DNA of 59,340 nt from a virus (lineage: Duplodnaviria; Caudoviricetes), in the IMG/VR virus record IMGVR_UViG_3300021961_000104, positions 1 to 59,340 of that record. One strand, written 5' to 3'. A program made the translations under genes and the position numbers. Positions 9,477 to 55,435 of the stretch are shown here, in pieces; positions within the stretch are counted from its first letter, which is position 1, and each line of letters begins with the position of its first letter. The notes under the pieces are model-generated. The model did not search any database. It was given only the letters and a program-made list of their open reading frames with translations, and was not told the DNA's origin.

Positions 9477-10232
9477 ATGAAGAAATATAACGTACAAAAT
9501 TACATTAGATACAAAGAAGATGTTAAAAAATCTATGCCTAATGACAGAAAATATAATGAGTACAATAGAGACGAACTTATTATAAAGTTTTTACCACTTG
9601 TAGAAAATTTAGCCAGAAAATTCTCTACATCTCAACAAGCTTCAGGTGTTTTAACTATAAATGATTTAATTCAAATTGGATCTGAATCTTTGATAAAAGC
9701 GGTTGATAGAATTGAATGGGAAACATTAAACAAATCAGAAGACATCGAAAAAACTTTAAAATCATTTTTGTCGAAAAGAATAAAAGGCGGTATTAGAAGA
9801 CAAATAGATATGGCTAGAGGTAACATGAGAATACCAGAGCATAAACTAAATGAAATACGTAGTAACCCTAAAGACAAACAAATGGTTGAAATGTTTTTTA
9901 ATAGTATATTCTTAAGTATAGATGCTCAAACTTCTAACGACGACGAGGAAAATATGATATATCAAATTGCAGATAAATCTGAACCATATAACATACAATT
10001 TCTTAACATTTATTTAAAAAGTTTAATGGAAAAACATTTAAACAAAAATGAATATGAAGTGCTTAGACTTTCTTACGGTCTTGACTGTGATCCGCATTCT
10101 GCAATTCAAATAGCAGAAAAATTAGGTATCAATGGTACAAGTTCTTACGTTAGAGTATCTGAGCTTAAAAAACAGGCTGTAACCAAATTAATAGAAAGCG
10201 TAGATCACTCACAAGTGCTTGATTTTCTTTAA
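9477..10232 (+). CDS. RNA polymerase sigma70-family factor
   Basis: Region 2 LPLVENLARKF...DLIQIG...LIKAVDR, MRIP, region 4 VLRLSYGL...IAEKLG. Confidence 0.9.
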   Translation: MKKYNVQNYIRYKEDVKKSMPNDRKYNEYNRDELIIKFLPLVENLARKFSTSQQASGVLTINDLIQIGSESLIKAVDRIEWETLNKSEDIEKTLKSFLSKRIKGGIRRQIDMARGNMRIPEHKLNEIRSNPKDKQMVEMFFNSIFLSIDAQTSNDDEENMIYQIADKSEPYNIQFLNIYLKSLMEKHLNKNEYEVLRLSYGLDCDPHSAIQIAEKLGINGTSSYVRVSELKKQAVTKLIESVDHSQVLDFL

Positions 10233-21229: not shown

Positions 21230-24200
21230 TTATTGTTTTTTACTCATTAATTCTAATATCTTATTAACTCTATCTTCTTCATATTTTAAAGCTCTAATTT
21301 CTTTTTTACTTAAACCAAAGTTAGTTAATGTTTTTACTTGATCTGGTTTGTTCTCGGCTTTAATTGAATCAAATTGTTTTTGTAATCTTTGTTCAGCTGT
21401 TAGTTTCTTAGGTTTAACCTCTTCTTTTGGTTTAACTTCTTTTTTAGTAGATTCTACTTCTTCTTTAGTTTCAATTTTTTCTATAGGTTTATTTTTTAAC
21501 TCTATAATTTTATTGACTCTATTTTCTTCGTATTTTAATTCTTTAATTTCAGCTTTAGTTAAACCTAATTCTTCCAACATTTGCTTTTGTTCAGCAGTGT
21601 TAGTTTGGTCCATCATTAATTTAACAGCTTCAGCAGCTTCTTCTTCTGGTGTTAAAGGCTCAACAGCATCAAAACCACCGTAATAAGGTAAACCAACGTC
21701 GTAAGTTGACCAACCTAAAATTAAAGCTATTTTTTGCCATCTTACAGAAAGTTCGCTAAATATACCTCTCATGTTGTTTGTTTTCTTAACAACTCTGTCT
21801 ACTGGCACGTTAGTTAAACCTGTAAATACTTGAGCTACTGCTAAGTAAGCTGGATTATCTAAACTCCAACCTTTTTCTTTCATTTCTTTTTTATTCCAAC
21901 TAAAAGATCTTAAACCTCCATATATTTTACCTACTTTAGATCCTAATGGCGGAGAAAAAGCAAACAAATCCTCAACAGCTTCTTCGTATTCAGGTCTTTT
22001 TTTATCATTTTCTTCCATTAAAGTTAACAAAAAGTTTTTTAAGGAAGATACAGCAGCCCCAGTTATACCAAGTCCTCTAAGTTGAGAATCAAGCATACCA
22101 TTTGCAACTTTAACAGCTTTTTCTTTACGAGTATTTTTTAGCTCTTCTTTGCTATCATCATCGTCATCATCTCCAAAACCAATAGCATCTATAGCTGATT
22201 GAAGTGTATTGAATAATAAGTTTTGAACAATACCATAGTATATTATTTTAGAAACATTAGCTTTAGCATTGCCTCTACCGTTAACAAGATCTTGTATAGC
22301 TCTTTTTTGAATACGAGCATACTGCATTGGTGTATTTGCCCATGCTAATATAACTCTACCAGCTGTTGACGCTTGTTGTTTACTAATTCTAACCGGATTG
22401 CTAGACTGTTGACTTTCTTCTGCTATTGCTCTAAAATCTTCAAAAGCACGTTGTTCAGCTAGTTTAGGATCCATACCTGATTTAACTAAACTTTTTATTC
22501 TATTTCTATAAAATGTAGAACCTCCACTAGCTATAGCAAAACTATCTGCAATTTGAGTCATAACAAATCCTTTGTTAAGGATATAAGAAATAATAGCAGT
22601 CGCTTTATTTTTAGAGTTAGCAGCAGCATCAGCAATTTCAGATTCACTTATGTTTATCTTTAAACCATTTCTACGTTCAACAAGATAATCAGAATTCATT
22701 AATGTAATAAAATCTTTCCAAAATTGTTTTTGATTAGCAAATGCTAAACCTGCTTTAAATATATTATTATCACTCCAGTTTATAAAGTTTACAGATGATA
22801 TAGTTTGTAACAAGGCACTTCTAGTATTCAAAAACATAACAGCACCAACGGAATTGTTAAGCCAATCTAATATACCTTGTGTAGTACTATCACCTCCTTT
22901 GGGTCTATTACTACCAGACTTCATTCTACGGATAGAATCCTCTATAGCTGCTCGCCAATTAGTACCATAAGCAGCTTCCATTTTATTTAAATTTTCTTCT
23001 GAAAATATAATATCAACATTTTCTCTAAACTCTTGTTGGTACTCGGCTCTTTTAACTGTATTTATATCATTAATAATATCAGAACTTATAGTACCGGCTA
23101 ACCAACTATCAGATGGTGAAGGATATGGTTTGTCTTTTTGTATAGTAAAAAGTTGCTCTGCAAATACTTTTAATTTAGGATCACTTTCAACAAATGAAGT
23201 TAAATCTTGAATATCTTTTTTACTTAAACCAGGAATTTCGACACCTTGACTTTGCCATATAAACACTCTTATAGCATGAGAATAATTAAACTTACCTATA
23301 CCAGTTTGTTTGTTAAGTGTTTTTGGTAATGTTTTAAGCTGTGTTTTTAAAGCAATAAAATCGTTCATTGCAGCTATCTTAGCTTGAGTTACAGATATTT
23401 CAGATCTATTGTATGTATCTAAAAGATTTTGTTTTAGGAACGCCATTTGTGCATCACCTTTTTTACCTTTACCTATCATTTCATACAATAAACCAGTAAA
23501 ATCTTCTGCGCCAGCGGGTATAAAGAAATTGTATTTACCTTTTCCAGCGCCAACAGTTCTAGCTTTAGCTGCTGAGTATTTTTTATAAGTTTCAATACCA
23601 GCTGTATCAAAAATCATATCATTAATAACTCTATCAAAATCTTGTCTTTTACTAGCTTTAGCTTGTTGAACTTTAGACTTAACGTCAATTTGACTCAATA
23701 CTTCTTCAACAGCTTTTACATTTCCAGTAACATCATCAGCAAAGTAAAAATCATTATAACCTTCAGAAGCTTTGTCCATAATCCATCTAGCCTTAGCTTC
23801 AGCAGCGCCATCACCAAGTCCAGTTATATTTTTAATAGGTATATTTAAACCTAAACTTTTAAGGAATTGTTGAATTGGTTTAGCGGCGTCAGCTGGTCTT
23901 GCTGTTAAAACAAAAATATCTTTAGTACCTCTTTTGTCAGCTATAATTTTAGCGACTTTAAACAATGGTCCTTCTTTGCCATCTATAACTTTGCTAAATT
24001 CAGAAAAATTCCATTCAGCTCCTTGTGCTTCTAAATCAGTGGCTTGTTCAGCGAAAGTTCCAGCCTCTAGTTTACCTTGAATATTGCTATTAATACCAGC
24101 ATAAACTTTATCTAAAAAATCTTGTGGTAAATCCTCTCCAAAGCCTATTTCTTCTGTATTTATTTCATACAACTTATCGCCAAAATCTTTTCTATAAAGC

Positions 24201-27200
24201 TCGGTACTTTCTTGCACTTGGTTCCAACTTCTTTCGACTATAAAATCTGGTAAAGATCTTTCTACTCTAGCTTTGTTTCTAGCCAATGCCGTTTCTAAAG
24301 ACGTATTAGCAACTACCATATGGACTTCATAACCTGCATCCTGCAACTGCTTAACTTTTTTCATTGTAGCAGGGTAAGAAGCTCCAGTGCCGTCAATCAC
24401 CATACCATCGCCATTAGCAGCGTATTTATCAAATTTAGCAACAGCAGCTTTTCTAGCAGCGGCACCCAATTTAGCTCTAGTAGATATTTGCTCTGTAGTA
24501 TATTCAGCTTCTTTAGCTGGCAGTCCAGCTTCAGCTTTCATAACTTCTAAAGCTATATCTTGATTAACAACTTTATAACCTTGTCTACCTAACTTAAGCC
24601 CTTTTCCAATGTTTGTTTTTCCAGCACCAGGTCCACCAACCATAAATATAGCTTTCTGTCTAACTGATTCAGGAGAAAAACCACCTTCAAAATTAGGCAT
24701 AGTATATATAACTCTACTATTAGTACGAGCTAATGTATCGTCAAAATCAAATACTCTAATTTTCTTAACTGGCGCGTTTAATTTTCTAGCATTATTTAAA
24801 GCTTTATCAGCTTTGCTTAAAGCATCGATACTAGTTTTAACTGTTACAGCTTTATCGTACTTTATAGAGTCAGGGATTAAATCACTATTACGTTTAGAAG
24901 CCATTGCTTTACCTTTAACTAAAGGTAGATAAGCTTTAATTGTTTGACTAGGATTATAATTTAGATCACTAATAGCCTTAATTATTTGTTCGTTTTGATA
25001 AGAAATAGCCTCTAACTTTTGACTTTCGTTATAAGAATTATAAACATCTAGTGGAATACCAGCGTTTACAGTTTCAGCCATAGTTTTGCCAGTGTAAGGA
25101 TTTGTAATAGTATTTAAATCTATACCAGCAGCAGCAAGTCTAACTATTGGATTGTCAAATATAGTGAAACCTTCTGGAAGAGTAGAATCTAACTTAGCCA
25201 TATCTAATAAAAAGTCATCCTTTTTAGATAATTGAGTTTGATAATAGTTATCTCTAATAGCTTGCATTATTGGTTGGGCTTTGTTATTTTTTATTGCCCA
25301 CATAATATAAGCTCCAACTACAGAAGCTGGTGGATTATGTTCTTCTCTATATTTTTCTCCTTTTCTTTGCTCTGGTTTACTACCTTTTCCAGCATATTCC
25401 ATTGTGTTGGATCTGTATAAAAAAGGAGCGGCTATTTTTATTAAACCAGAAGTGGCTTGATAGCTTTGTACAATTATAGTTCCAGCTACATCTAAAGACA
25501 TTCCATTAGCAACAGCGTCAGCAAGTTGATTAACAACATGATCTAACACATCCATGTTTACTTTAGACTGAACCTTTGCTTTATCTGTAAAAGCATTTTT
25601 GATATTTATTTTTATAGGTTTTTTACCTTTATATTCTTTAGTTGATTCTATTAATTTTATATAAACAGGATCTTTTTCACCATAATATAATCTTCCTGGT
25701 TTTGCAACCCAATTAGTTATTTCGCTACCAAGGCTACCTTCAGCAGATTTCTCTAAAAAATATCTACCATCTGTAGTTTTAACATATTTTTCAACACCAA
25801 TAGTGCCTTTTTTTCCTTTTACAAATTTACCATCAACTATTTTACCGTAAAAACTTTGTCTTCCACCACTACCCATCATTCCAGCTCTCAATGTAGCTGT
25901 ATCAAGTCCATATTTTTCGACAGCTTCTTGTATTTGATCTTGAATAGTTTTTCTATTTTGTTCATTTATAGAAGGTGAATTATAACGCAACGACTTAGCT
26001 AAATCGGTTTTAGATCTTAGTATGCTTAAACCTTTTAGTTCTTCTAAATTTTCAGGCGTTATTCTTTTACTAGCCATTGATTTAGATTTTCCAGCAGCTA
26101 TATCTTGTTTAACCTCTAAATTTAAATCAGTTTCAGATCTTACTATTTCATTAGTTACTAATCTACCATATAGATTTGCAATACCTTTTAACGCTTGAGC
26201 CTCAGATGATCTAGCGCTAAAGTCTTCAGCTTTTTTACCTTCAACTATACCAAACGTTTTTAGAAAATCAGCTTTTGTAATTCCTTTATTTAAAGCAAAC
26301 GGAGATAAACCAGCTCCTTTAGTAATTCTAGGTTTTTTAGTATAAAAAGCATTTAACAAACCCTTTGGCACTCCAGTAGAGGTACCTAAGAGCTTATCTG
26401 TTGCAGCTTCTATCACTGCGCCTTCAGGTAATATCTTTAATAATTTATCTGCGTTCTTATTGACAAATCTTTGTATAGCATTAGCATCACCTTTAGATAG
26501 GTTAGCAGTTGGATCTGTTAGTTTTTTAACTGGTATTCCAATTTCTTGAGCTATAATTTCAGGAGCTAGATCGCCTAACTTCTTAAACGTCATTTGTTCA
26601 GGATCTATACCTTTTATTTTAGAAGCAATATTTTCTTTTATTTTAGCAACAGCATCGTTAGATATTAAAGAGCTAGGTTTTATTAAAGTTGTAACTGGTT
26701 TTGTAGATACTTCAACATCTTGCTCTGTAGCTGTTTGGCGTTGCATTTTTTCAGTAACACCTTCTTGTGACTCAGATTGAATGATCTCATTATATCTAGG
26801 GTCAGCTTCATAAAACTCTTGCAACCTAGCGTCAAATAAGCTTCTGCCAGAAGCAGACTTTGAGTTTAAGTAACCCATGACACTATCGTTTCGATCTGGT
26901 GTCCATTTATCTATTAAGCTAACTAATCCTCTTTTTTCATCTAAAGCAAAAGTTCTAGCTATATCATCAATAACGTCTTCGCTTAGGTTTATATTACGCA
27001 TACGTCTTTTAGCCTCATCAACTAAAGAATACGCAGCCATAATAGTAGCATCTTTCTTTTTATTAGAATCAAGAAGATCTGGCTTCATGGCCTCAACTTC
27101 TTGATATACTCTTTTACTCTCTTTAGCAGCAGTATCAGTGACCTCGTCTTGCATCAAACTCTCAAAACTTTTAATAGCTTTAGCGCCTTTGGTTCTTTGA

Positions 27201-29980
27201 TCTATTTTAACCTCTCCTTCTACCAAAGCACCTTTAGCTCCTTCTTTAGCTACAGCTAATTGAACTTCAGACAAGCCTTTACCAGATTGAATTGTTTTGT
27301 TGTAATCTTTTAAGAAGTTAAAAATATCTTTACCTGTATCAAACGTTATGTTTAAAGGTTGTTTACCAGATCTAAATAAATTATTAAATAAATCTATTAA
27401 ACTTTCAAAAAACCCTTTTGTTTTTTCATTATAAACAATATCTCCATTAGACATGGCTTCGCTAACCAATGGTATAACTTCTTCCCACGTAGCAGCTGCA
27501 GAGTACTTAGGATCTTCTAAGTATTGTCTAAATCTATTTTCAAGATTACTATTTGTTATTGATATGTCTTTATTATTTACTATTTCAGAAAGTAAATTTT
27601 TTCCAAATATAATTGATAACTCTGGATTATCTTTAAAGGTTTGTTGGAAAAATGGATGTAATATTTCGTGTTGATCTGTTGTGAATTTAAAATCTTCTGC
27701 AGCGGCTCTATCGTTTATTAATATTATTTTTTTGTCATTTAATATAATTGATTGACCATATCCAGTTGATTCTTGAACTTCTCCGCCTTGATCTTTTATT
27801 TCTTGTACTCTTTTTTCGTAACCTTCTTGTGTATCAAAAGTTTCAAAATCAGATTCTAATTGTTCTGATATTATTTTAGCAGCTTCTCTGGCTTTTGATT
27901 GTTTTATTTTAATTAAATTTTCTTTTATTAAATTTTCATCTATGCTATTTTTAATAGCAAAAATATCATTAGACAACTTTTTATTCTTATTTACAACAGC
28001 TCCTTTTGCTGAACCATATTGTCTGCTATCAATTTCGCCATTTATATAAGCAACATTTAAATCTTTTAATATTTTATTATTTTTTTCTTTTTCAGAAACT
28101 AAATTTAAAACTTCTGCTTTTTGATTTGAATCTAAAAGTTTTGCTGAAATATAATTATTTTCTAAAAATTCTTTTAATGAATTTTCAGTTGTATTTATTT
28201 CTATATCAATAGCGTCTCTAAAAGCTTTATTTTTATTTAAAGCTCTAGCTTTTTGTAAGCCTCCAATAGTTTCAATGTGCTGATTGACAAATGCTAAAGA
28301 TTCTTTATCACTTCTCAAAGCTTTAGCTATTGTAGATGGCGCCGAAACTACCGTAGAACCAACAAGACCTTGTAAATAACTTTCAAGCCCATCTTCTGAA
28401 GCCATAGCTGATATGCCATCAAGTACGGAATTATTAAGGTTTTTACCGTCAGCTAAACTTTTATTTATTTCTTCAGTTCCTAATTGAAAAACCTCTGTTA
28501 AACCTTCTTTATTTTGAGTTAAAAGTAATGAAGCAAAAGGAGAATATTTACCTGTATACCCAGCAATTTGTTTTGAAATACCTTTAAGTCCAGCGTATTC
28601 AAGACTCATAGCCAAAACTCCTAATGTAAGTGGAGTGTTGATTTCTGTTTCATTATTTCTAACTAACTCTTCTATTGGGTTCTCTGAATCTTTATATTTA
28701 GAATTTGCTTTTGAAACATTGTAGTCTACATACATAGGAGCAACTATTTGAGGAAACAAAGAACCTCCTCTAGTTAAGGCAGCTGGTGCTGCTGTTTCAA
28801 TAAGACTTCCAACCGCATTAAATACTCCACCTATTATTTCAGGTATATCTCCTTTTTTAAAACCCGATACAATTCCACCAACGTCTGTTCTTGTTTCGCT
28901 TAATTTTTTTACTTTACCAAATTGCTCGATCATATAATCTTCAGCAAATTTACCAACTTCATTATCTGTACCTGAATATACTGCTTTTACGTTTGAACCA
29001 ATTTGTCTTTTTAGTCTACTTAATTCTTTCCAACGCTCAGGGTTTTTAGAAAATAATACCTCGCTGTTATCGTTTGGGTCAATAAAAGCTATAGCTGTTT
29101 CTGGCATTTTTCCGGTTAAAAAGTCGGCAGCATCTTGGCCGGCAGTATTTTTTATAAAATCTATTCCAGCAAGTTTAGCAGACTCCCAAGAAGTTTCTAG
29201 TCCTATAGGTATATTTTCAACAGTACCAATAAACCTTCCGGTAATATCCATAATTGGTTCCATTATTATATCAGCTATTGTTGGCTTTATTTCCGGTATA
29301 TCTTTTTTAGATAATTCAGAAATATAATCAGAAACCTTGTCTAATTCTTTATATGATACTATAGCTTTGTTTGTTTGTAAATTATCTCCTCCAAAAGCTT
29401 TTCTTATATTATTTATTTTTTGTAAATTTAAAAACTCATTTTCAGGTTTTAAAACTTCTTGTTGTGTTTTATTTAAAAAGTCATTAAAACTTTCCCCTTC
29501 TTTTTTTTCTTTTTGATATTTACCAAAAACATTATAAAGATCATTATCTATAGTTTCATCTGGAGCTAATTCCAATTGATAATAAGCTATAGTTCTTTCT
29601 GGAGTACCTGATTTATATTTTTTTAATATAGAATTTATTTGATCTTGTTTGTATTTTTTCTCTTCTTTTTCAAACTCCTTTATAGACTTTCCAAACAAGT
29701 CTTTATGCATTTTATCAAAATCACCTTCTTGATATTTCAAATCTCCATTTCCATATACTACATCTGAAAATGATGTCTCGGACGCATCCGGTTGTTTGGG
29801 TGATGCAGTTGCATCCGTTTTGTCTACAACACCCTTCGTCTTTGCTTCGTCGATAACGTCATCTACAACTTTATCTTCAACAGGTGGATTATTTTTTTTC
29901 CACTCTTGAGCTTTGTCAAATATTTCTTTATCAGATAATCCTTGATCTTGTAGAGAAGCTATATATTCTAATAATGTCAT
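21230..29980 (-). CDS. Giant (2916 aa) virion/ejection polyvalent protein: zincin peptidase, sigma-like module, HAD phosphatase with inserted P-loop kinase
   Basis: HEILH; GLVSLIDKWTPDR; DFDDT/LTAR/FADD; GGPGAGKT; lies after tail and internal-protein genes. Confidence 0.8.
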   Translation of the reverse strand: MTLLEYIASLQDQGLSDKEIFDKAQEWKKNNPPVEDKVVDDVIDEAKTKGVVDKTDATASPKQPDASETSFSDVVYGNGDLKYQEGDFDKMHKDLFGKSIKEFEKEEKKYKQDQINSILKKYKSGTPERTIAYYQLELAPDETIDNDLYNVFGKYQKEKKEGESFNDFLNKTQQEVLKPENEFLNLQKINNIRKAFGGDNLQTNKAIVSYKELDKVSDYISELSKKDIPEIKPTIADIIMEPIMDITGRFIGTVENIPIGLETSWESAKLAGIDFIKNTAGQDAADFLTGKMPETAIAFIDPNDNSEVLFSKNPERWKELSRLKRQIGSNVKAVYSGTDNEVGKFAEDYMIEQFGKVKKLSETRTDVGGIVSGFKKGDIPEIIGGVFNAVGSLIETAAPAALTRGGSLFPQIVAPMYVDYNVSKANSKYKDSENPIEELVRNNETEINTPLTLGVLAMSLEYAGLKGISKQIAGYTGKYSPFASLLLTQNKEGLTEVFQLGTEEINKSLADGKNLNNSVLDGISAMASEDGLESYLQGLVGSTVVSAPSTIAKALRSDKESLAFVNQHIETIGGLQKARALNKNKAFRDAIDIEINTTENSLKEFLENNYISAKLLDSNQKAEVLNLVSEKEKNNKILKDLNVAYINGEIDSRQYGSAKGAVVNKNKKLSNDIFAIKNSIDENLIKENLIKIKQSKAREAAKIISEQLESDFETFDTQEGYEKRVQEIKDQGGEVQESTGYGQSIILNDKKIILINDRAAAEDFKFTTDQHEILHPFFQQTFKDNPELSIIFGKNLLSEIVNNKDISITNSNLENRFRQYLEDPKYSAAATWEEVIPLVSEAMSNGDIVYNEKTKGFFESLIDLFNNLFRSGKQPLNITFDTGKDIFNFLKDYNKTIQSGKGLSEVQLAVAKEGAKGALVEGEVKIDQRTKGAKAIKSFESLMQDEVTDTAAKESKRVYQEVEAMKPDLLDSNKKKDATIMAAYSLVDEAKRRMRNINLSEDVIDDIARTFALDEKRGLVSLIDKWTPDRNDSVMGYLNSKSASGRSLFDARLQEFYEADPRYNEIIQSESQEGVTEKMQRQTATEQDVEVSTKPVTTLIKPSSLISNDAVAKIKENIASKIKGIDPEQMTFKKLGDLAPEIIAQEIGIPVKKLTDPTANLSKGDANAIQRFVNKNADKLLKILPEGAVIEAATDKLLGTSTGVPKGLLNAFYTKKPRITKGAGLSPFALNKGITKADFLKTFGIVEGKKAEDFSARSSEAQALKGIANLYGRLVTNEIVRSETDLNLEVKQDIAAGKSKSMASKRITPENLEELKGLSILRSKTDLAKSLRYNSPSINEQNRKTIQDQIQEAVEKYGLDTATLRAGMMGSGGRQSFYGKIVDGKFVKGKKGTIGVEKYVKTTDGRYFLEKSAEGSLGSEITNWVAKPGRLYYGEKDPVYIKLIESTKEYKGKKPIKINIKNAFTDKAKVQSKVNMDVLDHVVNQLADAVANGMSLDVAGTIIVQSYQATSGLIKIAAPFLYRSNTMEYAGKGSKPEQRKGEKYREEHNPPASVVGAYIMWAIKNNKAQPIMQAIRDNYYQTQLSKKDDFLLDMAKLDSTLPEGFTIFDNPIVRLAAAGIDLNTITNPYTGKTMAETVNAGIPLDVYNSYNESQKLEAISYQNEQIIKAISDLNYNPSQTIKAYLPLVKGKAMASKRNSDLIPDSIKYDKAVTVKTSIDALSKADKALNNARKLNAPVKKIRVFDFDDTLARTNSRVIYTMPNFEGGFSPESVRQKAIFMVGGPGAGKTNIGKGLKLGRQGYKVVNQDIALEVMKAEAGLPAKEAEYTTEQISTRAKLGAAARKAAVAKFDKYAANGDGMVIDGTGASYPATMKKVKQLQDAGYEVHMVVANTSLETALARNKARVERSLPDFIVERSWNQVQESTELYRKDFGDKLYEINTEEIGFGEDLPQDFLDKVYAGINSNIQGKLEAGTFAEQATDLEAQGAEWNFSEFSKVIDGKEGPLFKVAKIIADKRGTKDIFVLTARPADAAKPIQQFLKSLGLNIPIKNITGLGDGAAEAKARWIMDKASEGYNDFYFADDVTGNVKAVEEVLSQIDVKSKVQQAKASKRQDFDRVINDMIFDTAGIETYKKYSAAKARTVGAGKGKYNFFIPAGAEDFTGLLYEMIGKGKKGDAQMAFLKQNLLDTYNRSEISVTQAKIAAMNDFIALKTQLKTLPKTLNKQTGIGKFNYSHAIRVFIWQSQGVEIPGLSKKDIQDLTSFVESDPKLKVFAEQLFTIQKDKPYPSPSDSWLAGTISSDIINDINTVKRAEYQQEFRENVDIIFSEENLNKMEAAYGTNWRAAIEDSIRRMKSGSNRPKGGDSTTQGILDWLNNSVGAVMFLNTRSALLQTISSVNFINWSDNNIFKAGLAFANQKQFWKDFITLMNSDYLVERRNGLKINISESEIADAAANSKNKATAIISYILNKGFVMTQIADSFAIASGGSTFYRNRIKSLVKSGMDPKLAEQRAFEDFRAIAEESQQSSNPVRISKQQASTAGRVILAWANTPMQYARIQKRAIQDLVNGRGNAKANVSKIIYYGIVQNLLFNTLQSAIDAIGFGDDDDDDSKEELKNTRKEKAVKVANGMLDSQLRGLGITGAAVSSLKNFLLTLMEENDKKRPEYEEAVEDLFAFSPPLGSKVGKIYGGLRSFSWNKKEMKEKGWSLDNPAYLAVAQVFTGLTNVPVDRVVKKTNNMRGIFSELSVRWQKIALILGWSTYDVGLPYYGGFDAVEPLTPEEEAAEAVKLMMDQTNTAEQKQMLEELGLTKAEIKELKYEENRVNKIIELKNKPIEKIETKEEVESTKKEVKPKEEVKPKKLTAEQRLQKQFDSIKAENKPDQVKTLTNFGLSKKEIRALKYEEDRVNKILELMSKKQ

Positions 29981-31791: not shown

Positions 31792-33174
31792 TTAATAAGA
31801 AGATACGTTGAAATTTGTTGAAACAGCGAATAACTCTGCTGGTTGTCCAACTACACTAGTTCCACTAGCACCAATTGACATAGTTATTTCTGAGTAAAAA
31901 CCTTTTACACCAGTAGCTTCTGGTTCTCCAATACTATCATCTACTAATACTCTATTTTTATATCTCGCAGCATTCACAACATTATTAGGTCCTGAACTAG
32001 ATATACTTGAAAAATATTTATTTTCTTTCTCCCAAAAACCTGCGTATTGTAATTCTTGAATACCTGGTTCTAAATAAGACCCATCTACATAAGACTTAAC
32101 AACTTTAGCTCCTTCATAGTCTGTAACAAGACTTGTCATCTCCCAATTATCAGTACCTTCATAATTAATTGTTAAAAACTCTTTAACAATATTAGGAGAT
32201 GGATTTGCTATAAATGTTATAGTAGAAGCGTTATCAATGCCATAAAAATTAGATCTATTTACACTGTCAGAATAATGTAACCAAACTTTACCATTTTTAA
32301 TACTATAAAATTTATTTCTTAAACTACCCATTTGTTCTGGTACAAATGACATGAAACTCACCCAACCAGTAGGTTGTTCATCAAACATTAATGTTGAAAA
32401 ATAATTATTAATGTTATCTTGTAAAGAAATTACATAACTTTTGTTGTTAACATCCCAAGCTCCTTTTATTTCACCAGATGATGTTATATTAACTAGATTA
32501 TCTCTAAACCAGTCAACCATACCATGAGATGATATTTCTGTAATACCATCTTGAGAGAGTCTTAATACAACTGATTTATTTTTATCTGTAAAATATTTTC
32601 TATAACCGTATACGGCAAATGACTCTGGATTTGTACCAATACCCCATTCGCCACCATAAGGAACTATTTGACCTATTACAACGTTAGAGCTAGTCACAGT
32701 GCCACCACCTTCAGCAGAATAAATAGCATCTTTGTCTATTAAAGCTCTATTCACTTTTCTTTCTTGAAAAATAGTAAGGTTTGAATCTTCTGAATATAAT
32801 TTCTGTATAGATCCAAAAGCCGGGTCAACTGATTTAGTTATATTTTCAGCTGTAGAAAATACGTTAATTGCATTAAATCCTGTGCTTGAATTATATATAC
32901 CGGAATATATTAATCCGTTTTGTTTACGCTGTAAATTAGGTTCTTCTTCAACAAGATACGCTCTAACTCCTAAATCTACAATAGTATTATTATAACCACC
33001 ATTAATCCTAGCTTCTTCAATATACCAAAAACTATCCGACTTAGTTGGATCGGGTGGACCAAAATCATCATCATAAGAACTTGACCACTCAGGAGCAACG
33101 TCTACTTCATCGCTGTTTACTACTTTTTTTAACCAAAAAGTGTTATAATATCCTACTTCTAATGTTGCAGCCAT
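31792..33174 (-). CDS. Tail stabilization/nozzle protein (C-terminal part-like)
   Basis: GSIQKL, PESFA.YG..YFTD, LRLSQDGITEIS motifs of crAss-like/P22 gp10-type tail proteins. Confidence 0.7.
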   Translation of the reverse strand: MAATLEVGYYNTFWLKKVVNSDEVDVAPEWSSSYDDDFGPPDPTKSDSFWYIEEARINGGYNNTIVDLGVRAYLVEEEPNLQRKQNGLIYSGIYNSSTGFNAINVFSTAENITKSVDPAFGSIQKLYSEDSNLTIFQERKVNRALIDKDAIYSAEGGGTVTSSNVVIGQIVPYGGEWGIGTNPESFAVYGYRKYFTDKNKSVVLRLSQDGITEISSHGMVDWFRDNLVNITSSGEIKGAWDVNNKSYVISLQDNINNYFSTLMFDEQPTGWVSFMSFVPEQMGSLRNKFYSIKNGKVWLHYSDSVNRSNFYGIDNASTITFIANPSPNIVKEFLTINYEGTDNWEMTSLVTDYEGAKVVKSYVDGSYLEPGIQELQYAGFWEKENKYFSSISSSGPNNVVNAARYKNRVLVDDSIGEPEATGVKGFYSEITMSIGASGTSVVGQPAELFAVSTNFNVSSY

Positions 33175-33178
33175 AATT

Positions 33179-33187
33179 TATTATCAC
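33179..33187 (-). promoter_or_regulatory. Putative late promoter box GTGATAATA
   Basis: Intergenic; recurs at 39479, 49089, 51583, 55809. Confidence 0.35.
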
Positions 33188-33203
33188 TTATTTATTTTAA
33201 ACA

Positions 33204-36200
33204 TTACGGACATGTTGTTGGTTGTGTTGGATCGCAACTAAAAATATTATCTACTATTGGCGAGTTTAATCCATTATTAGCAAATCCATCTTCAACCATA
33301 GTGTTTACAACATATCTAACAATATTTCTAGCAATTAAATCTACTCCATCAAGATCCCATGGATCTGTAACTTCTGGTATATCTGGATATAACGTATATT
33401 GCACGTAAACTTGTCCCTTTAAATTCTCTTGAAAACCCTCATACATGAAAGTATCAAGTCCAGCACCATGGCAATTTCCTTCTGTTTCTCTAAATATATT
33501 TTTAATTAATTGTGTTATTTCAAAAGAACCTTGTAGATTTAATTCTGATTCATCAAAAGTTAAAGTAGCTCTAGTTGTATTAGCATCCTCGGTAACAAAT
33601 ATTTCATCACCTAAATCTGATCCGCATAGATTATTATTACTTTTGAAAAATTGCCATTTTATATCTTGTTTAAGTGGTAAGGTGCTTAAATCAAATTGAT
33701 TTTCATTTCCATTAACATCAGAAGGATTAGGCGTTACAATTTCAATACCTAACTTAAATTGAGTAGTATTATAATTAGTTAAAGCACCTATTAAACCACT
33801 TAAAATAGTTTTAGTTATTTGTACTCCACCTTCGTTTGAAGGATTTGAACTAGAGCACACGTACCATGTGTTTAAGCTAGGTTCATAAGCTAATCCGCCA
33901 TGTCTAGACCATTTAGTGGTACCATTGCCAAAATCTTCGTTAAGGTTATCAAACGGAGTTGAGGTAGGTTTAAACTTAGCAGTTCCACTTAAACTTGGAT
34001 TTATAAAAGGAGTTGGGTAAGTTACTTGTAACCAAACTTCTTTTTCATCTACTGTAAAACCAGTAGCATTATCAGCATCACTTAATCTATATCTTACAAG
34101 ATAATCCTGTCCCCTGTCAACTTTTGCTAAATCAACTTGTAGATACGCTGTACCGTCAGTTTGGATTGGAGAAAAAGTAAATGTTCCTGAAGAAATAGGA
34201 TCAAGACCGATTCCGTTTGGTTTAGAAGGATCTTCATAAGCTTTTTTTTGATAATAAACATTAAGTTGAAGCCCGTTTAATCGATATGGATTAAGATTTA
34301 AAGCAGTTGTTGCCCCGTTTTCAAGATCTTGAAGTTGAAATATAGGTATAATGTCAGTTGCTCCTTGTGCCTTTGGTATAAATATAGATGGAGAATTAAG
34401 ACTACCAGTTGCTGGAAAAACTCCAATATCACAAACATAATTTTGTAAAGGAATTTGTACAGTAATATCTTGAGTTAAACCAGATGGCAATGTAAATCTC
34501 ATTGTAATATCATATACATCAAAAGTAGAACTTTGTGATGTATATACAAAATCACTAATAGATTTTAAAGCATAAGTATCTGGCAGCGAAGAGGTTAATT
34601 CTAATTCAAAGAAATTATATGGAGTAACATCAGTTCCTATACCATTAACAACACTAATTATAACTCCAGTAGTACCTGATGCTATTGGATTTCCTTCTCC
34701 ATCTAATAAATTAAAAGGATCAGCAATAGCAACACCACCTGGTGCACTATATTCTATATTTTCTACAAAATTTGATGCGTCTGTTGGATTAGGACTTAAA
34801 CCCGAAATACCAACATTATCTTGTTTAATTAATTCATTAAGATCAGAAATTAAACCTCCTGTGGACGTTTCCCAGTATATATCTAATAATGATGTGACCG
34901 GTTCGGTTTCTAATATACTTAATCTAGGTAGATTTTCACCGCCCTCTTCGTATGCTGGCATTCCTATACCTAAAGATGTATTAGTTGAAATTCTTGCTAA
35001 CAAAGGATTTGATTGATTTTGATAAAACCCAGGAAAAGATGTATATGTTGTTCCAGGGTTATTATTATATAACTCTTGCTCAGAACCAATAGTAGTAGCT
35101 ATAAAATTATTTCTACCTGGATAATATTGTATAGTGAGCGGAGCTGCTGCAGAGTTATCATCATGCTCTGCTGTATTCTCAACCCTAACATAAAGTCTTG
35201 TGTTACTAGATCTATATTGTTGTTGGTCTGGACCAACTTCTGTCAAATCTCTTGGTATTTTGTTTATATTGTCTCCAATTAAAACAACATTTGCTATTTC
35301 ATCAATTTCTTCTGGTGTTATCGGAGTAGCGTATGATGGATTACCGTTTAAAAAACCAGGCAAGTAAGCATTGTAATAATCTTGCTCTGTTTGTTTGACT
35401 ACAATTCTATAAGAATACCAGCCTAATGGATTTATTGTATATACGTACTTGGCTTCAGTAGTTGAACCACCGTAACCACCAGTAAAATTATAAATATTTG
35501 CTATTTGCTCTTCAGTGGTTATCACAGTATCAGAGCCATTAAACGATGCAGATAATATTTTAGTGAAATCAACATGATAACCTCTTAAATAATTATTTAA
35601 TCCCGCGCCGTTAATTGGTGATAATTGAGCAGTAAAATCACCACCAGTTATCGTATATTCATAAGGAAAAGTTGAAGTTATTGTCGTTGTATTAACAACG
35701 TCTTGAAGCAAGAAGTTAGTTGGTTGAGCATAAGTTCCTACGTAAAACTGCGTTGGTGTTTCTTGAATAGGACTATTAAATCTTATTTGTAACGTATCAC
35801 CATACCAATTTAAAGGTCCGCCCCATCCTGATTCTTTGTACGGATGGTAAATAGTTGAAGTTGGTTCGTTAGCGTTAATGCCAGCTATAATTGTTGATAA
35901 TAAAACGGAAGAAGCTCTACCAAATTTATCGTACAATACAACGCCAACCTCGTAATTTCTATTTTGCTTTAAACTGTGGTTAGGATATTCAGCTGTAAAA
36001 TTTGAACTTGCTGGATTTTTAGAATTTACAAATATATTATAATCTAAAGAAGATGGAGCGTTGTTTCTATTAACATAATTACCGTAAACAACTCTATTAC
36101 TTATAACGTCTTGAGCTAATGCTCTAACCGGTACTTTATCTGAAACTCTGGTTGTGTCTGCATTTGGTAGTGTTTTATATGGTTTTTTAGATTGATAAGT

Positions 36201-37439
36201 ATATTTAAAATAATTCATATCCGCAGCATATTCATCTTCAAAAGTCACAGAAGATATAGGTACTGTCTGTAAAACCTTTATAGCTATAGCATCAGATTCT
36301 TTATATAATATATCAACTTCTTGTATTTTATAATCAGATAAAGGATTATTAGATGGAAATGGTATGTATAATTCTATATTATTAGCTTTATTCTCCATCC
36401 AAGACAATATAGTACTCTTGTAAGCATCCACTTCGTTTTTACCTCTATCACCGATTTCTCCAGCAACATACGCTTCTCCTAAGAAAAATCCATCTTGTTT
36501 AGGTATAAACATTACTTGAGTAAATGGAGCTATTAACGAATACTCATTGTCAGCATATTTAAATCTATAACTAAATCTTACAAATTTATCTTCTAAAAAA
36601 TCAGGATCTCCTTTCCAACTAGGATTACTAGATTCATCAGACATTGTAGTTCTTGAAAACTTTATAGTGTCATTAATTAATATTGTAGTACTAGAGTCTT
36701 GATCTACAGTGATAACTGTATTCGTTAAATCTGATTTATCAACATTAATAACAATACCTAAGAATTGTGGGTCTAAAATATTATCAATTTCAGTGGATTC
36801 GTCTACAGCATAATCTCCAACTGCTATAGTATTGTCTATACCAGATATTGTAAACGTAGTAGCGTCAAGACCCAGGAAAATTACTATTCTATTTTCTTCA
36901 ACAACAGCTGAGATGGGCAAATATGGTGAGAATTTAGCAACAGAAATGTGCTCTTCTTTTGTGTAGTAACCAGGAGAACTTAATGCTGTATTAACATTTA
37001 TAACTCTAGGTTGGTTTCTATTGTCTGTAAAAAACAATAAATTTTCCAGCATACTTATACCGTATACCGGTGACAGGGTAGAAAAATTTAAAAAACTTCC
37101 AGACACTAAAGTGTTAAAACTTGTTGACCCGGGTATATATCTATATATTGCACAACTAGCGCTAATTGGCGCTATTGTAGAACCAGAATAATCAGTTGTA
37201 AAAATATACATACAATTATTAGATTCGTCCATGAATAAACCAATAGCAGTATGCCCTTCAGGAGTAATAGTTTGTATTAACTCATTGCCTTTAATATTCT
37301 CTAAAGCTCCTACATCAGAACCTTCGGATCTATTAATAGATATATTTTGAGCATCTCTATATTCTCCATTTGGAAGAATTCTTTCATCAATATCTTTGTT
37401 CATCCTAGATTGGAGGAACATATTTTTAGATTCTGCCAT
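33204..37439 (-). CDS. Large tail stabilization/structural protein
   Basis: MNKDIDER..PNGEYRDAQN N-terminus, FSYRFKY, NRVVYGNY, YDKFGR. Confidence 0.75.
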   Translation of the reverse strand: MAESKNMFLQSRMNKDIDERILPNGEYRDAQNISINRSEGSDVGALENIKGNELIQTITPEGHTAIGLFMDESNNCMYIFTTDYSGSTIAPISASCAIYRYIPGSTSFNTLVSGSFLNFSTLSPVYGISMLENLLFFTDNRNQPRVINVNTALSSPGYYTKEEHISVAKFSPYLPISAVVEENRIVIFLGLDATTFTISGIDNTIAVGDYAVDESTEIDNILDPQFLGIVINVDKSDLTNTVITVDQDSSTTILINDTIKFSRTTMSDESSNPSWKGDPDFLEDKFVRFSYRFKYADNEYSLIAPFTQVMFIPKQDGFFLGEAYVAGEIGDRGKNEVDAYKSTILSWMENKANNIELYIPFPSNNPLSDYKIQEVDILYKESDAIAIKVLQTVPISSVTFEDEYAADMNYFKYTYQSKKPYKTLPNADTTRVSDKVPVRALAQDVISNRVVYGNYVNRNNAPSSLDYNIFVNSKNPASSNFTAEYPNHSLKQNRNYEVGVVLYDKFGRASSVLLSTIIAGINANEPTSTIYHPYKESGWGGPLNWYGDTLQIRFNSPIQETPTQFYVGTYAQPTNFLLQDVVNTTTITSTFPYEYTITGGDFTAQLSPINGAGLNNYLRGYHVDFTKILSASFNGSDTVITTEEQIANIYNFTGGYGGSTTEAKYVYTINPLGWYSYRIVVKQTEQDYYNAYLPGFLNGNPSYATPITPEEIDEIANVVLIGDNINKIPRDLTEVGPDQQQYRSSNTRLYVRVENTAEHDDNSAAAPLTIQYYPGRNNFIATTIGSEQELYNNNPGTTYTSFPGFYQNQSNPLLARISTNTSLGIGMPAYEEGGENLPRLSILETEPVTSLLDIYWETSTGGLISDLNELIKQDNVGISGLSPNPTDASNFVENIEYSAPGGVAIADPFNLLDGEGNPIASGTTGVIISVVNGIGTDVTPYNFFELELTSSLPDTYALKSISDFVYTSQSSTFDVYDITMRFTLPSGLTQDITVQIPLQNYVCDIGVFPATGSLNSPSIFIPKAQGATDIIPIFQLQDLENGATTALNLNPYRLNGLQLNVYYQKKAYEDPSKPNGIGLDPISSGTFTFSPIQTDGTAYLQVDLAKVDRGQDYLVRYRLSDADNATGFTVDEKEVWLQVTYPTPFINPSLSGTAKFKPTSTPFDNLNEDFGNGTTKWSRHGGLAYEPSLNTWYVCSSSNPSNEGGVQITKTILSGLIGALTNYNTTQFKLGIEIVTPNPSDVNGNENQFDLSTLPLKQDIKWQFFKSNNNLCGSDLGDEIFVTEDANTTRATLTFDESELNLQGSFEITQLIKNIFRETEGNCHGAGLDTFMYEGFQENLKGQVYVQYTLYPDIPEVTDPWDLDGVDLIARNIVRYVVNTMVEDGFANNGLNSPIVDNIFSCDPTQPTTCP

Positions 37440-47745: not shown

Positions 47746-48020
47746 TACTTAGATCTTCCTTCAGCAAAACCTTTAAAAGACTTTGGTTCTACTGCCTCTA
47801 CAGGTGTTTCGTTTAACAAACTCTCTTCAGCTTCTATTCTATTTAATATTTCAAAAGCATCAAATATAGCTAATTTTTTTGTAGCTGCTGCATTTTTTAA
47901 TCTATCTGCTGTAATATCATCGCCAGAATCAACAATAGCTTCTTTGGCTACTTTGATAAGTTCCTCAACTGCTACTTGCCCAGCTTGGATTATATTCAAC
48001 TTCGTTTCCTTGGTATTCAT
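47745..48020 (-). CDS. Putative terminase small subunit
   Basis: Helical 91 aa, TAATG-coupled to terL. Confidence 0.5.
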   Translation of the reverse strand: MNTKETKLNIIQAGQVAVEELIKVAKEAIVDSGDDITADRLKNAAATKKLAIFDAFEILNRIEAEESLLNETPVEAVEPKSFKGFAEGRSK

Positions 48021-48570
48021 ATTTAATTACAATATCATTAGATTTCATACAGTATAGTCTTTTGTCATCGACTAAAAATTCCCATTCACTATGTGGCGTA
48101 AAACCAACAAGATCTCCAGGATTAATTCCTAGCGCTTCTAAAGAACTATTACCGTATTTTAATATGCCAATAAGGCTTTCTTCTTTATCGAGCGTTAGAT
48201 CGCTTCTATTAGTTATTGGAGATATAAAACATCTATCGTTTATAGTATTCCAAATATTATTATGTTTGTATAAATATATTTGATCTAGCGTACATAAATG
48301 TAAATCATCTTTTAAATAAGATCTACTTTTCTTTTTAACACCTTTCATATCATAGAATGTTCTAAATACGTTCTGATGAACAACTACAATATCACCAATT
48401 GATATTTTACAATTAAAAGCTAGTGGCACTTGAACAACTTCAGCTATCCTATTGACAAACTTCCAGTTTTCTATCTTAGTGTTAACCACTAAATCTTTGC
48501 CACCAACTTTAATTGTATTATTATATTTTTCTCCAACTGGCTTTACAATAAAGTCATACAAACTTTTCAT
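47965..48570 (-). CDS. Tandem GroES-like (co-chaperonin-fold) protein
   Basis: FIVKP...IGDIVVV and CFISP...GINPGDLVGF...MKSNDI. Confidence 0.65.
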   Translation of the reverse strand: MKSLYDFIVKPVGEKYNNTIKVGGKDLVVNTKIENWKFVNRIAEVVQVPLAFNCKISIGDIVVVHQNVFRTFYDMKGVKKKSRSYLKDDLHLCTLDQIYLYKHNNIWNTINDRCFISPITNRSDLTLDKEESLIGILKYGNSSLEALGINPGDLVGFTPHSEWEFLVDDKRLYCMKSNDIVIKYEYQGNEVEYNPSWASSS

Positions 48571-53641: not shown

Positions 53642-53901
53642 AAAACAACAACTACATCTTGTACTTTTATAACGTGATATGTTTGCTTATCTATTTCTAT
53701 TTTATGACCAGCGTGCTTATCATACAATATAACGTCATTTTCTTTTAAACCTAGTACTTCGCTTCCAACAGAAAAAACTGTTGCTCTAATGTACCTTATA
53801 TCATCTCTATGATTCTCTGCAAGTAAAAGTCCACCTTTTGTTTTAGTTGTACCTTCTTTTGCTTTGTTTATGATTATATTATTACCTATTGCTTTCATCA
53901 A
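53638..53901 (-). CDS. groES: Co-chaperonin GroES
   Basis: TKGGLLL mobile loop, VFSVG, LKENDVILY, QDVV; adjacent to groEL. Confidence 0.9.
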   Translation of the reverse strand: MMKAIGNNIIINKAKEGTTKTKGGLLLAENHRDDIRYIRATVFSVGSEVLGLKENDVILYDKHAGHKIEIDKQTYHVIKVQDVVVVL

Positions 53902-55435
53902 TTCTTAAATTATTGATTACACAATCGGTTGACAGTATTGTTGTGGCTACTGAAGCTGCATTTTTAAGAGCACTTTTGGTAACAAGTAAAGGATCGATAA
54001 TACCTGATTTAATCATATTTACCATTTTTCCTGTAACCACGTCGAAACCTACACCTTTTTTGGTTGGAGATTCTACGTTTTCAACCCCTGCATTATCTAA
54101 TATTGTTTTATAAGGAGCTTGAATAGCTTTTAATAAAACATCTTCACCAACAGATTTGGCTGTTAAGTTTTTAGAAGCATTTAGTAATGCAATACCGCCA
54201 CCAGAAACTATACCCTCTTTGATAGCAGCTTTAGTAGCACAGATGGCATCTTCAACCCTATCTGTTTTTTCTTTTAATTCTATTTCAGAGTTAGCACCTA
54301 CTTTTACTATAGCTATTCTAGCTGAAAGCATTGCTAATCTTTTTTCTAGTTTCACTACTTTGTTGCTATTTTTTTCAACTAGTAATTCTTTTTTTATTTC
54401 ATCAATAACTTCTAAAACTTGTTCAGAAGGTTCATTGACTTGTAATATTGTTTCTTCATGAGAAGTAACGCTTTTAACACAAGTTCCTAAATGTTCAACT
54501 TGAATTAATTCTATATCGTCACCTAAATCTTCATTTATAATTACAGCACCTGTCAATAAAGACAAATCATCTAACATTTGTTTTTTATTGATACCGTATG
54601 TAGGTGCATCAATTACATTTACTTTTATAGCACCTTTTAACTTGTTCATAGCTAGAGCTGATAAAACACCTTGTTCTAAGTCACCTATAATAAGTAAAGG
54701 TTTATTGTTTTTTATTACGTACTCTAGCACAGATTGTATCTGTCTAATGCTATCTACTGGTGATTCTAAAAGTAATATTAAAGGTTTTTCTAATTCAGCT
54801 GTCTTTGTTTGAGGATTAGTTATAAAATGTGAATTTTTTAATCCTTTTTGATATTGAACACCGTCAACAACTTCAACAACTGTTTTACCATCTGAAGCAG
54901 TTTCCATCATTACAACACCAGTGTTGTTTACAGATCTAAACGCATCAGCTATAATTAAACCTAATTCTTTATCATTATTTGTTGATATTGTAGCTATTTG
55001 ATCTATCATATTACCTTCAACAGCAATACTATTAGATTCTAAATAATTAACAACTTTATCAACAGCTTTGTTTATACCTTCTTTTAATTCTCTAGAATTT
55101 GTTTTATCAGCAACCTTGTAAGCCTCTTCTAATATAGCATGAGCTAAAACAGTTGCTGTCGTGGTTCCATCACCTGCTTCTTGAACAGTTTTTCTAGCAG
55201 CTTCTTTTAAAAGTGTGGCACCCATATTTTCAACTGGATCTCTTAATATTATAGAATCAGCAACGGTAACTCCGTCTTTTGTTATAATAGGTCTTCCAGT
55301 ATTGTCTTCTAGTATCACACATTTGCCGCTAGCTCCTAAAGTGGAGCTAACAGCTTTTGTGAGTTTTTCAATTCCTTTAAATATATTTATTCTGGCATCT
55401 TCACCAAAATTTAGATTCTTGACTATAGCGTCCAT
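53882..55435 (-). CDS. groEL: Chaperonin GroEL
   Basis: ITKDGVTVA, AGDGTTTATVLA, DRVEDA, GGGIAL, GIIDP; lacks GGM tail. Confidence 0.97.
   Translation of the reverse strand: MDAIVKNLNFGEDARINIFKGIEKLTKAVSSTLGASGKCVILEDNTGRPIITKDGVTVADSIILRDPVENMGATLLKEAARKTVQEAGDGTTTATVLAHAILEEAYKVADKTNSRELKEGINKAVDKVVNYLESNSIAVEGNMIDQIATISTNNDKELGLIIADAFRSVNNTGVVMMETASDGKTVVEVVDGVQYQKGLKNSHFITNPQTKTAELEKPLILLLESPVDSIRQIQSVLEYVIKNNKPLLIIGDLEQGVLSALAMNKLKGAIKVNVIDAPTYGINKKQMLDDLSLLTGAVIINEDLGDDIELIQVEHLGTCVKSVTSHEETILQVNEPSEQVLEVIDEIKKELLVEKNSNKVVKLEKRLAMLSARIAIVKVGANSEIELKEKTDRVEDAICATKAAIKEGIVSGGGIALLNASKNLTAKSVGEDVLLKAIQAPYKTILDNAGVENVESPTKKGVGFDVVTGKMVNMIKSGIIDPLLVTKSALKNAASVATTILSTDCVINNLRIDESNR

Follow-up and report, generated by a model that had tools for sequence, protein, structure and literature searches.

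IMG/VR virus record IMGVR_UViG_3300021961_000104, a contig of a tailed phage (Caudoviricetes), carries an open reading frame (ORF) of 2916 amino acids (aa), and this locus raises the question of whether a giant phage protein acts as one chain or is made as a polyprotein that is cut into separate effectors. The window analysed here is this whole viral contig of 59,340 bp (completeness estimate 92%), in which the ORF lies as follows:

21230..29980, minus strand: giant ORF, open over 2916 aa (~324 kDa), a predicted modular internal-virion (cargo/ejection) protein

A first-pass annotation, made from the letters of the sequence, had described the product as a self-processing polyprotein, punctuated by the motif [AS][KM][AE]SKR and cut by an embedded HExxH metallopeptidase (zincin). 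We find that this motif is conserved in the family, that it changes in concert between the sites of one protein, that it lies in predicted flexible linkers, and that the HExxH...E residues of the embedded domain are invariant. The giant ORF may thus encode a cargo polyprotein whose motifs are recognised by a protease, probably the protein's own zincin, a reading to which we give a probability of about one half. A defined, concertedly evolving inter-module motif in a polyvalent cargo protein is what is new here.

A hexamer that recurs four times

The tripeptide SKR occurs exactly four times in the giant ORF, always within the hexamer [AS][KM][AE]SKR, with Ser at aa 955, 1304, 1695 and 2110 and with spacings of 349, 391 and 415 aa. 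These positions, as well as that of the HEILH sequence (aa 771-775, 27656-27670), are the ones that the first-pass annotation had reported. The four sites are:

27110-27127, minus strand: motif site 1, AKESKR (aa 952-957); S and K each 86% conserved (alignment A2)
26063-26080, minus strand: motif site 2, SMASKR (aa 1301-1306); M, A, S, K and R 82-88% conserved
24890-24907, minus strand: motif site 3, AMASKR (aa 1692-1697); S 95% and K 90% conserved
23645-23662, minus strand: motif site 4, AKASKR (aa 2107-2112)

From the composition of the protein 0.72 SKR tripeptides are expected, and 0.67% of 20,000 shuffles gave at least four. The hexamer is expected 0.002 times; at least one copy appeared in 0.22% of the shuffles, and four copies in none of the 20,000. 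SKR in the hexamer context is also absent from the other real ORFs of the window. The protein is rich in lysine (10.6% K) and its modules do recombine, which would suit a recurrence due to chance, to low complexity or to a DNA-level repeat used in module recombination, but the shuffles speak against such an origin and so do the codons. Ser is written AGT at three of the four sites and TCT at the other, Arg is AGA at three and CGT at one, and the motif Ser codons of 50 related loci comprise 32 AGY and 22 TCN. These differing synonymous codons, with both Ser codon families in use, indicate that the repeat is kept as a peptide and not as DNA, and that selection acts on the peptide. The motif is moreover kept across proteins of 35-70% identity, and we regard chance or a DNA repeat as an extremely improbable explanation.

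A KQSKA sequence ahead of the peptidase (aa 693-697) had been put forward as a weaker site, which did not hold up: it lies inside a predicted helix (model residues 43-68), and the aligned residues vary among homologues. An AMASED sequence in the N-terminal region (aa 525-530; 28391-28408, minus strand) can be lined up by eye with the MASK[EDFK]G that at least 10 homologues have around residue 500-560, and may be a fifth, degenerate motif site.

Concerted change of the motif across the family

A word-index search returned more than 1699 homologues of the giant protein, and the family counts given throughout rest on 119 other homologues that were listed (P identifiers) and on 50 loci from viral contigs (L identifiers; 35-69% identity). 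The motif is conserved in most of the 119, with the equivalent sites K[AS]MASKR, AKESK[RK] and VQLAKASKR. What is kept is not a fixed SKR, as the single sequence had suggested, since R is a variable position and the constant core is [KMR][AEF]-S-K. The residue that follows SK tends to shift in step across the sites of one protein: RRRR or KRRR is the commonest combination, LLLL or LLLI is found at the motif sites of P0005-9, P0011 and P0035, AKFSKT is present two or three times in P0026, P0040, P0053, P0063, P0081, P0087 and P0092, and P0093, P0100 and P0102 are of the GG type. At sites 3 and 4 this residue is identical in 84 of 93 proteins, compared with 63.4 expected under independence, and a residue other than R occurs in 18 pairs, 9 of them identical and another 3 of the L/I kind. 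The alignment-based table behind these counts misreads site 2 of the L-type proteins, which have an insertion, and a pattern-based table is better there. The proteins are related, so that these are counts of non-independent events; a tree of the C-terminal core has very short branches over which the motif types are spread, and is too shallow to count independent switches.

Unbiased k-mer counts in the distant loci also recovered lineage-specific repeats, always around Ser: KFSKS four times in L014, [KR]FSET four times in L011 and five times in L027, KFSKTK twice in L002, RNSES(L) twice in each of L030, L032 and L039, RNSNS twice in L034, (V/T)LRSK three times in L018 and KSSLNLS twice in L016. 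About 20 of the 93 large representatives recovered with a profile of the zincin domain carry at least three exact copies of FSKS, QFSK, KFSK, FSKT, FSRS or KASK, and many others have no exact repeat. A 5-mer of the site-4 window recurs within its own protein in 12 of 48 loci and in 46 of the 119 P proteins, compared with 4.2% and 4.1% of control windows, while a site-4 4-mer is found within the 105 residues around the zincin end in 43 of 214 proteins, compared with 7.7% of control windows. The control windows of these recurrence counts include other motif sites, and the comparison is hence conservative.

The motifs lie in predicted linkers

AlphaFold2 models built with family alignments cover aa 640-1720, with a mean predicted local distance difference test score (pLDDT) of 78.2, and aa 1690-2880, with a mean pLDDT of 70.5. 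As expected for motifs in flexible linkers, the Ser of all four motifs falls in segments of pLDDT below 50 in this segment-wise modelling. At site 1 the segment comprises aa 943-956, with Ser 955 and Lys 956 inside it, and at site 2 aa 1297-1305; around site 3, aa 1685-1702 form a coil of pLDDT below 50, and at site 4 the value falls below 50 only at aa 2109-2112 (ASKR), between the last strand of a HAD domain and the first helix of the C-terminal core. Residues with pLDDT below 50 make up 12% and 15% of the two models, and the chance of finding four out of four there is ~2.5e-4 if the sites are independent. DSSP places low-confidence helices over sites 1 and 4, and two low-confidence segments, aa 864-876 and aa 1084-1098, contain no motif.

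The distances from motif to motif in the family have a median of 359 aa and a 5th percentile of 213 aa, with 3 of 291 intervals shorter than 100 aa. A BLAST comparison with the 119 homologues revealed shared blocks at aa 690-1300, 1540-1760 and 1960-2830, and variable stretches at aa 1-690 and 1300-1540. The ends of the high-scoring segment pairs cluster at aa 1300-1310 (site 2), with some at 1680 (near site 3), and in six distant loci homology starts at aa 2099-2119 (site 4). Motifs and exchange points thus coincide in part, at sites 2 and 4 and in some cases near site 3, but other exchange points lack a motif. In the same way, modules are exchanged among homologues, as had been predicted, and some of the exchange points are at the motif, whereas others are without it. 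In addition, a 163-aa cassette (P0068-72, P0109) is flanked by the motif on either side in 5 of its 7 carriers when the strict pattern is applied, P0109 having the variant SIASKR, and P0056 contains a different cassette of ~165 aa that is likewise flanked by motifs. Natural splits at the motif might have been visible in the 120 short homologues of the core, but most of these are fragments from contig ends or were called from an internal Met, their N-termini are scattered, and they are uninformative.

A conserved, co-varying, Ser-centred peptide in exposed linkers fits any common reader, and the motifs could also be short linear motifs of inter-domain hinges that are never cut and are read by one partner, for example a Ser-modifying enzyme, a docking surface on capsid or portal, or the phage chaperonin. 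The phage does encode GroEL and a GroES-like protein, and the persistence of the motif in family members without the zincin would also suit this reading. The 48 ORFs scanned, however, yielded no protein kinase, glycosyltransferase or comparable enzyme, and the kinase embedded in the giant protein is of the polynucleotide-kinase type and present in only ~32 of the 119 homologues. The variants also include both basic (ASKR) and acidic (FSET, RNSES) forms, a range ill-suited to DNA binding or to a fixed docking surface, and the cassettes arrive flanked by the motif on both sides, as expected of release sites. We therefore consider an uncut linear motif rather improbable.

An invariant HExxH...E domain ahead of the first site

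The domain that precedes site 1 is the candidate protease of the polyprotein reading:

27155..27883, minus strand: divergent gluzincin-like domain (aa 700-942), with HEILH at 27656-27670 and E834 at 27479-27481

Alignment A3 of this domain (20 sequences, 18-28% identity) has four invariant columns, H771, E772, H775 and E834, and no others; the last of these is the putative third metal ligand. The model follows the gluzincin order, with strands (model residues 103-117), the HExxH helix (129-138) and further helices, at pLDDT values of 80-92. HExxH...E is invariant in more than 200 giant proteins, and the zincin is nearly universal in the family. When the zincin profile was searched with HMMER against 1.84 billion representative proteins, 1363 representative clusters were retrieved, and the 150 of them that were listed are all family giants or fragments, with no bridge to a named peptidase family. 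In the 50 loci the profile hits the giant ORF only, in 30 of them. The first-pass annotation's zincin is therefore supported by the invariant HExxH...E and by the helix placement, but not by a match to any solved or curated zincin. A search of BFVD returned a family member and weak LPD, RNA polymerase and IrrE-like rows, with a viral IrrE-N-like entry at E 0.58 and probability 0.63.

Mutual information of the site-4 residues reaches 0.61 with the zincin, versus 0.47 with columns of the core, values that are uncorrected for column entropy and ancestry. A complex prediction that combined the zincin alignment with the site-2 linker (aa 1286-1325) scored 0.00, which speaks neither for nor against binding.

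Which protease would cut the sites

No general protease family was found in the 48 other ORFs of the window, each scanned in at least one library; apart from a cell-wall amidase and, in a tail fibre, the self-cleaving Peptidase_S74, no related domain turned up there. The embedded zincin is favoured, because invariant residues of catalytic type are confined to it, almost the whole family has it, and the motif comes just past its end. In the mechanism that we propose, the chain would consist of a variable N-terminus, the HExxH...E domain, two further modules, a HAD domain with a kinase insert, and a helical core, and one endoprotease would recognise the four linkers and convert the precursor of ~324 kDa into about five products. 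If the cut falls after SK, these would measure ~107, 38, 43, 45 and 91 kDa. The likeliest protease would be the embedded zincin, with a first cut in cis at the site ~15 residues past its own end, and further cuts in trans once the particle has been assembled or the protein ejected into the host. We infer the scissile bond and the timing of cutting, and also packaging in the virion, the latter from synteny. That the sites are cut at all appears fairly probable from the sequences and models; if they are cut, the embedded zincin is the probable agent. Self-processing by this zincin, which requires both, is a leading but contested possibility that we hold tentatively.

Several observations weigh against the polyprotein reading. 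The case for cutting is built entirely from sequence and models, and the virion location is derived from synteny alone. The HExxH domain has no Pfam peptidase match (whole-protein scan, E ≤ 0.1), Foldseek against the PDB gave no zincin (best E 0.29, with a multi-domain query that may weaken the search), and nothing significant was obtained with the zincin profile against PDB sequences (IrrE 3dte, E 2.5). The covariation between sites is imperfect (RRT, RT, TAR, KRRR) and confounded by shared ancestry, the exchange points near aa 690, 1540, 1760 and 1960 carry no motif, and at site 4 the conserved end of the HAD fold takes in the VQQAK part, and just four residues there have a pLDDT below 50. 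According to PMC5512222, N4 vRNAP has such a peptidase yet is packaged uncut, which would also suit a motif that is read and not cleaved. Furthermore, two full-length lineages have neither HExxH nor zincin similarity, yet keep the repeated motif: P0117/118 with KFS[LRK]S three times, and P0093/100/102 with KESKD, MASRG, KASKG and KASKG. The giants of both lineages contain no other peptidase family, and in 8 metagenome loci of the P0093 lineage no zincin was found in the flanks examined. L008 is likewise without HExxH, but with AKFSKA and SKFSKA. Such zincin-less lineages that keep the repeated motif argue against strict self-processing.

These same lineages (the P0093 and P0117 types and L008) would be explained if the motifs were cleavage sites of a protease that acts in trans, which could be a phage maturation protease that escaped recognition or one of the host, with a specificity that differs between hosts, the HExxH domain having another target, such as host proteins or the cell wall. 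The prohead proteases of T4 and of phages of the phiKZ/SPN3US type do trim many internal or ejection proteins at a short consensus (PMC5694885, PMC10052503), concerted change of the sites would also follow if the host or a separate protease changed, and ~8% of the genome is missing. The scans of the 48 other ORFs, on the other hand, gave no general protease family, prohead proteases included, and the 397-aa ORF between the portal and capsid genes looks scaffold-like (weak Atlas lead, 0.80). No other ORF of the window has the motif, although several head proteins are the usual substrates of a prohead protease, and the invariant HExxH...E of more than 200 giants needs a substrate, with the first site lying right after the domain. 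A protease in trans seems to us unlikely on this balance, and the embedded zincin is retained as the preferred one.

Other modules of the giant protein

The rest of the chain is divided as follows:

27914..29980, minus strand: N-terminal region (aa 1-689), variable, present in ~20-35 of 119 homologues, only sub-threshold Pfam matches
26081..27109, minus strand: module 2 (aa 958-1300), helical, with two sub-parts
24908..26062, minus strand: module 3 (aa 1307-1691), alpha/beta, pLDDT mostly 88-98 (model residues 670-1040)
23663..24889, minus strand: putative HAD-type phosphatase (aa 1698-2106), with a P-loop kinase inserted after HAD motif I
24191-24673, minus strand: polynucleotide-kinase-like insert (~aa 1770-1930), with GGPGAGKT at aa 1782-1789
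21689..23644, minus strand: C-terminal core (aa 2113-2764), family-defining, with 46 invariant columns (alignment A1)
21233..21688, minus strand: C-terminal tail (aa 2765-2916), of low pLDDT

The part that follows site 1 had been called a sigma-like module, but neither aa 958-1305 nor the same part of three homologues gave a Pfam match at E ≤ 1, and the modelled part had no fold match. A weak, sub-threshold Sigma70_r2 match (E 9.4e-4) is found elsewhere, in a 251-aa ORF of the early region (9477-10232, plus strand); any sigma-like factor of the phage would be this ORF and not a module of the giant protein. Module 3 has no significant match in PDB, BFVD or Pfam and contains a conserved REEHNPPASV stretch, and may be a new enzyme fold.

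The HAD and kinase module that had been recognised in the first reading is supported by Pfam and Foldseek for the kinase and by sequence motifs for both parts. The kinase matches the Pfam families AAA_33 (E 4.5e-13) and Zeta_toxin (E 3.6e-9), and a Pfam scan of the whole protein (E ≤ 0.1) returned kinase families and DUF5830 only. In Foldseek the kinase matched 4gp6 (E 2.7e-4, target-normalised TM-score 0.69) and also T4 Pnk (2ia5/1ltq). The HAD part is below the cut-off in Pfam (Hydrolase, E 0.0037), and its motifs DFDDT, VLTARP and FADD are present in the sequence. In T4 Pnk (1ltq, 2ia5) a P-loop kinase and a DxDxT HAD phosphatase are joined in one unit, as is predicted here, and 4gp6 is the kinase of Clostridium thermocellum Pnkp, which the insert resembles. 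In contrast to T4 Pnk, where the phosphatase follows the kinase, here the kinase is inserted within the HAD after motif I, and many homologues have the HAD alone: the insert is present in ~32 of the 119, and ~87 have the HAD part without it. The chains of T4 Pnk align over 360-367 columns, with a root mean square deviation of ~25.

The C-terminal region is all-helical in the model, in agreement with the earlier description. Its core is found in 117-118 of the 119 homologues and in 50 of 50 loci, and has no Pfam family match; its Atlas neighbours are viral hypothetical proteins, with weak leads to LPD39 (28% of the cluster, score 0.95) and LPD38 (0.93). The tail contains a repeat, GL[ST]KxEI..LKYEExRVNKI, at aa 2806-2825 (21506-21565) and at aa 2889-2908 (21257-21316), with a K/E-rich stretch in between, which may be a packaging or docking signal. 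The tail repeats are kept in homologues (NRVEKI twice in L002), and a GLSDKEI sequence at the N-terminus looks similar. LysM (PF01476, from precomputed annotation) is present in P0012-P0015, P0038, P0052, P0054, P0056, P0075 and P0077, which fits a role of family members in crossing the cell wall.

Place of the giant gene in the phage

The genes around the giant ORF are arranged as follows:

Upstream of the giant ORF, same strand: terminase, P22-like portal, a 397-aa ORF without a family, a capsid-like protein and further virion proteins
Between these virion genes and the giant ORF: the muzzle ORFs (1411 and 460 aa), then two small ORFs
Downstream of the giant ORF: a 96-aa ORF and an amidase, the giant ORF being the last large gene of the structural block

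At 31792-37439 (minus strand) a crassvirus muzzle protein is split in two ORFs of 1411 and 460 aa, which match the N- and C-terminal parts of PHROG 14478 (Pfam PF25731, PF25729). The phage has this crAss-type muzzle, and the named phages closest to it belong to Elemovirus and Pervagoviridae and not to Crassvirales: the portal is 50% identical to that of MW202828, 44.5% to that of Maribacter phage Panino, 42% to that of the Flavobacterium Elemovirus and 33.5% to that of Cellulophaga phi38:1 (Pervagoviridae). In relatives the equivalent locus also holds a giant gene, of 3694 aa in Elemovirus, 3859 aa in MW202828 and 1691 aa in phi38:1 (gp101), and two of these, in the Elemovirus and phi38:1 records, are annotated as 'structural protein'. 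Neither BLAST nor hidden Markov model searches detected homology between the giants of these three phages and the protein studied here, and exact k-mers detected no repeated motif in them. In tblastn against 50,697 phage records, the kinase part alone of the giant protein was matched.

The genes that follow the muzzle in crAss001 code for cargo proteins that reside in the head and tail and are the first to be ejected (PMC10172136). From its position in the structural block and from the giants of relatives at the equivalent locus, the giant ORF is read as a probable internal cargo (ejection) protein, of an uncultured marine-type podophage related to phages of Bacteroidota.

HExxH sequences are also present in non-homologous giants at the same locus, with HEFGH twice in L053 (MW202828.1, 741-12320) and HEIFH in L055 (MT497017.1, 50563-61647). 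Elsewhere in the window, a GroEL chaperonin (53882-55435, minus strand) and a GroES-like protein (47965-48570, minus strand) form a pair that is also annotated in Elemovirus, phi38:1 and MW202828, and a tail-fibre ORF near the contig end (57441-59090, minus strand) has a C-terminal Peptidase_S74 intramolecular chaperone domain (E 1e-15).

Comparison with known systems

Polyvalent proteins were defined by Iyer, Burroughs, Anand, de Souza and Aravind in 2017, who proposed that embedded zincin-like peptidases release domains by autoproteolysis, and who cite both the processed DdrB of P1 and the unprocessed vRNAP of N4 (PMC5512222). The protein described here has the multi-domain build of this type, with 5 or more parts that fold separately, among them the HExxH domain, the kinase and the HAD. 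Like polyvalent proteins, it is a giant multi-domain phage protein with an HExxH hub, a kinase and a phosphatase that process nucleic-acid ends, and peptidoglycan-binding LysM in relatives, and it is predicted to travel with the DNA, here from synteny. Unlike them, it has no match to the MPTase or LPD Pfam models (whole protein at E ≤ 0.1, parts at E ≤ 1), LPD39 and LPD38 being Atlas leads only. It also differs from polyvalent proteins as published in having a defined inter-module motif that evolves in concert. In the main text of PMC5512222 'cleavage site' appears in the reference list only and 'linker' is absent, and in the open-access literature we found no description of this giant-protein family or of a punctuating motif.

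With the polyproteins of RNA viruses the giant protein shares the hallmark of a short consensus at several domain borders, in exposed, flexible linkers of one precursor, that is conserved and co-varies between lineages, and a first cut in cis is plausible here as well. The flavivirus NS2B-NS3 protease, for example, cuts after dibasic residues before a small residue. The two systems are not homologous: the giant protein belongs to a tailed phage with double-stranded DNA, is probably virion cargo and not a replication polyprotein, and has a putative metallopeptidase in place of a serine or cysteine protease. As a working analogy, and again without homology, the giant protein resembles MARTX toxins in being a giant multi-effector delivered to a cell, with an embedded protease that would cut unstructured linkers and with modules that are exchanged. 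MARTX and the large clostridial toxins are secreted by bacteria and contain an internal cysteine protease that is activated by inositol phosphate.

Among phages, the prohead-protease systems (T4 gp21, phiKZ gp175, SPN3US gp245) trim head-packed, ejected proteins at a short consensus during assembly (PMC5694885, PMC10052503). In these systems many separate proteins are cut by a dedicated assemblin-type serine protease, whereas here the motif is in one protein only and no gene for such a protease is among the 48 ORFs. N4 vRNAP and the cargo proteins of crassviruses are giants of the podovirus head that are ejected first, and their genes are downstream of tail or muzzle genes (PMC13434306, PMC10172136), as is the case here. 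In contrast to N4 vRNAP, no RNA polymerase domain was detected in the giant protein by Pfam, PDB fold or BFVD searches. The main text of the crAss001 paper (PMC10172136) contains no words beginning with 'cleav' or 'proteoly'.

Implications

Since 2017 the polyvalent proteins of phages and plasmids have been predicted to undergo autoprocessing by embedded zincins, and no site is defined in the main text of PMC5512222. If the polyprotein reading is true, the motif would be the first defined cleavage code for this long-predicted process. This large and purely metagenomic family offers a testable peptide, natural variants of specificity (R, L, T, G, FSET, RNSES) and zincin-less controls. Even if the sites are uncut, the concerted evolution of a linker peptide still requires a reader. 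If they are cut, giant phage ORFs of this kind could be divided into functional units by means of the motif, the family would provide a set of orthogonal pairs of protease and site, and the delivery of several enzymes by a podophage through its narrow tail would be explained. More tentatively, the family may represent a true polyprotein strategy of giant phage cargo, in which the embedded metallopeptidase and a Ser-centred cleavage code co-evolve and cassettes are swapped together with their own sites. In that case, one gene would deliver into the host a changeable set of separately acting enzymes along with a conserved ejection core.

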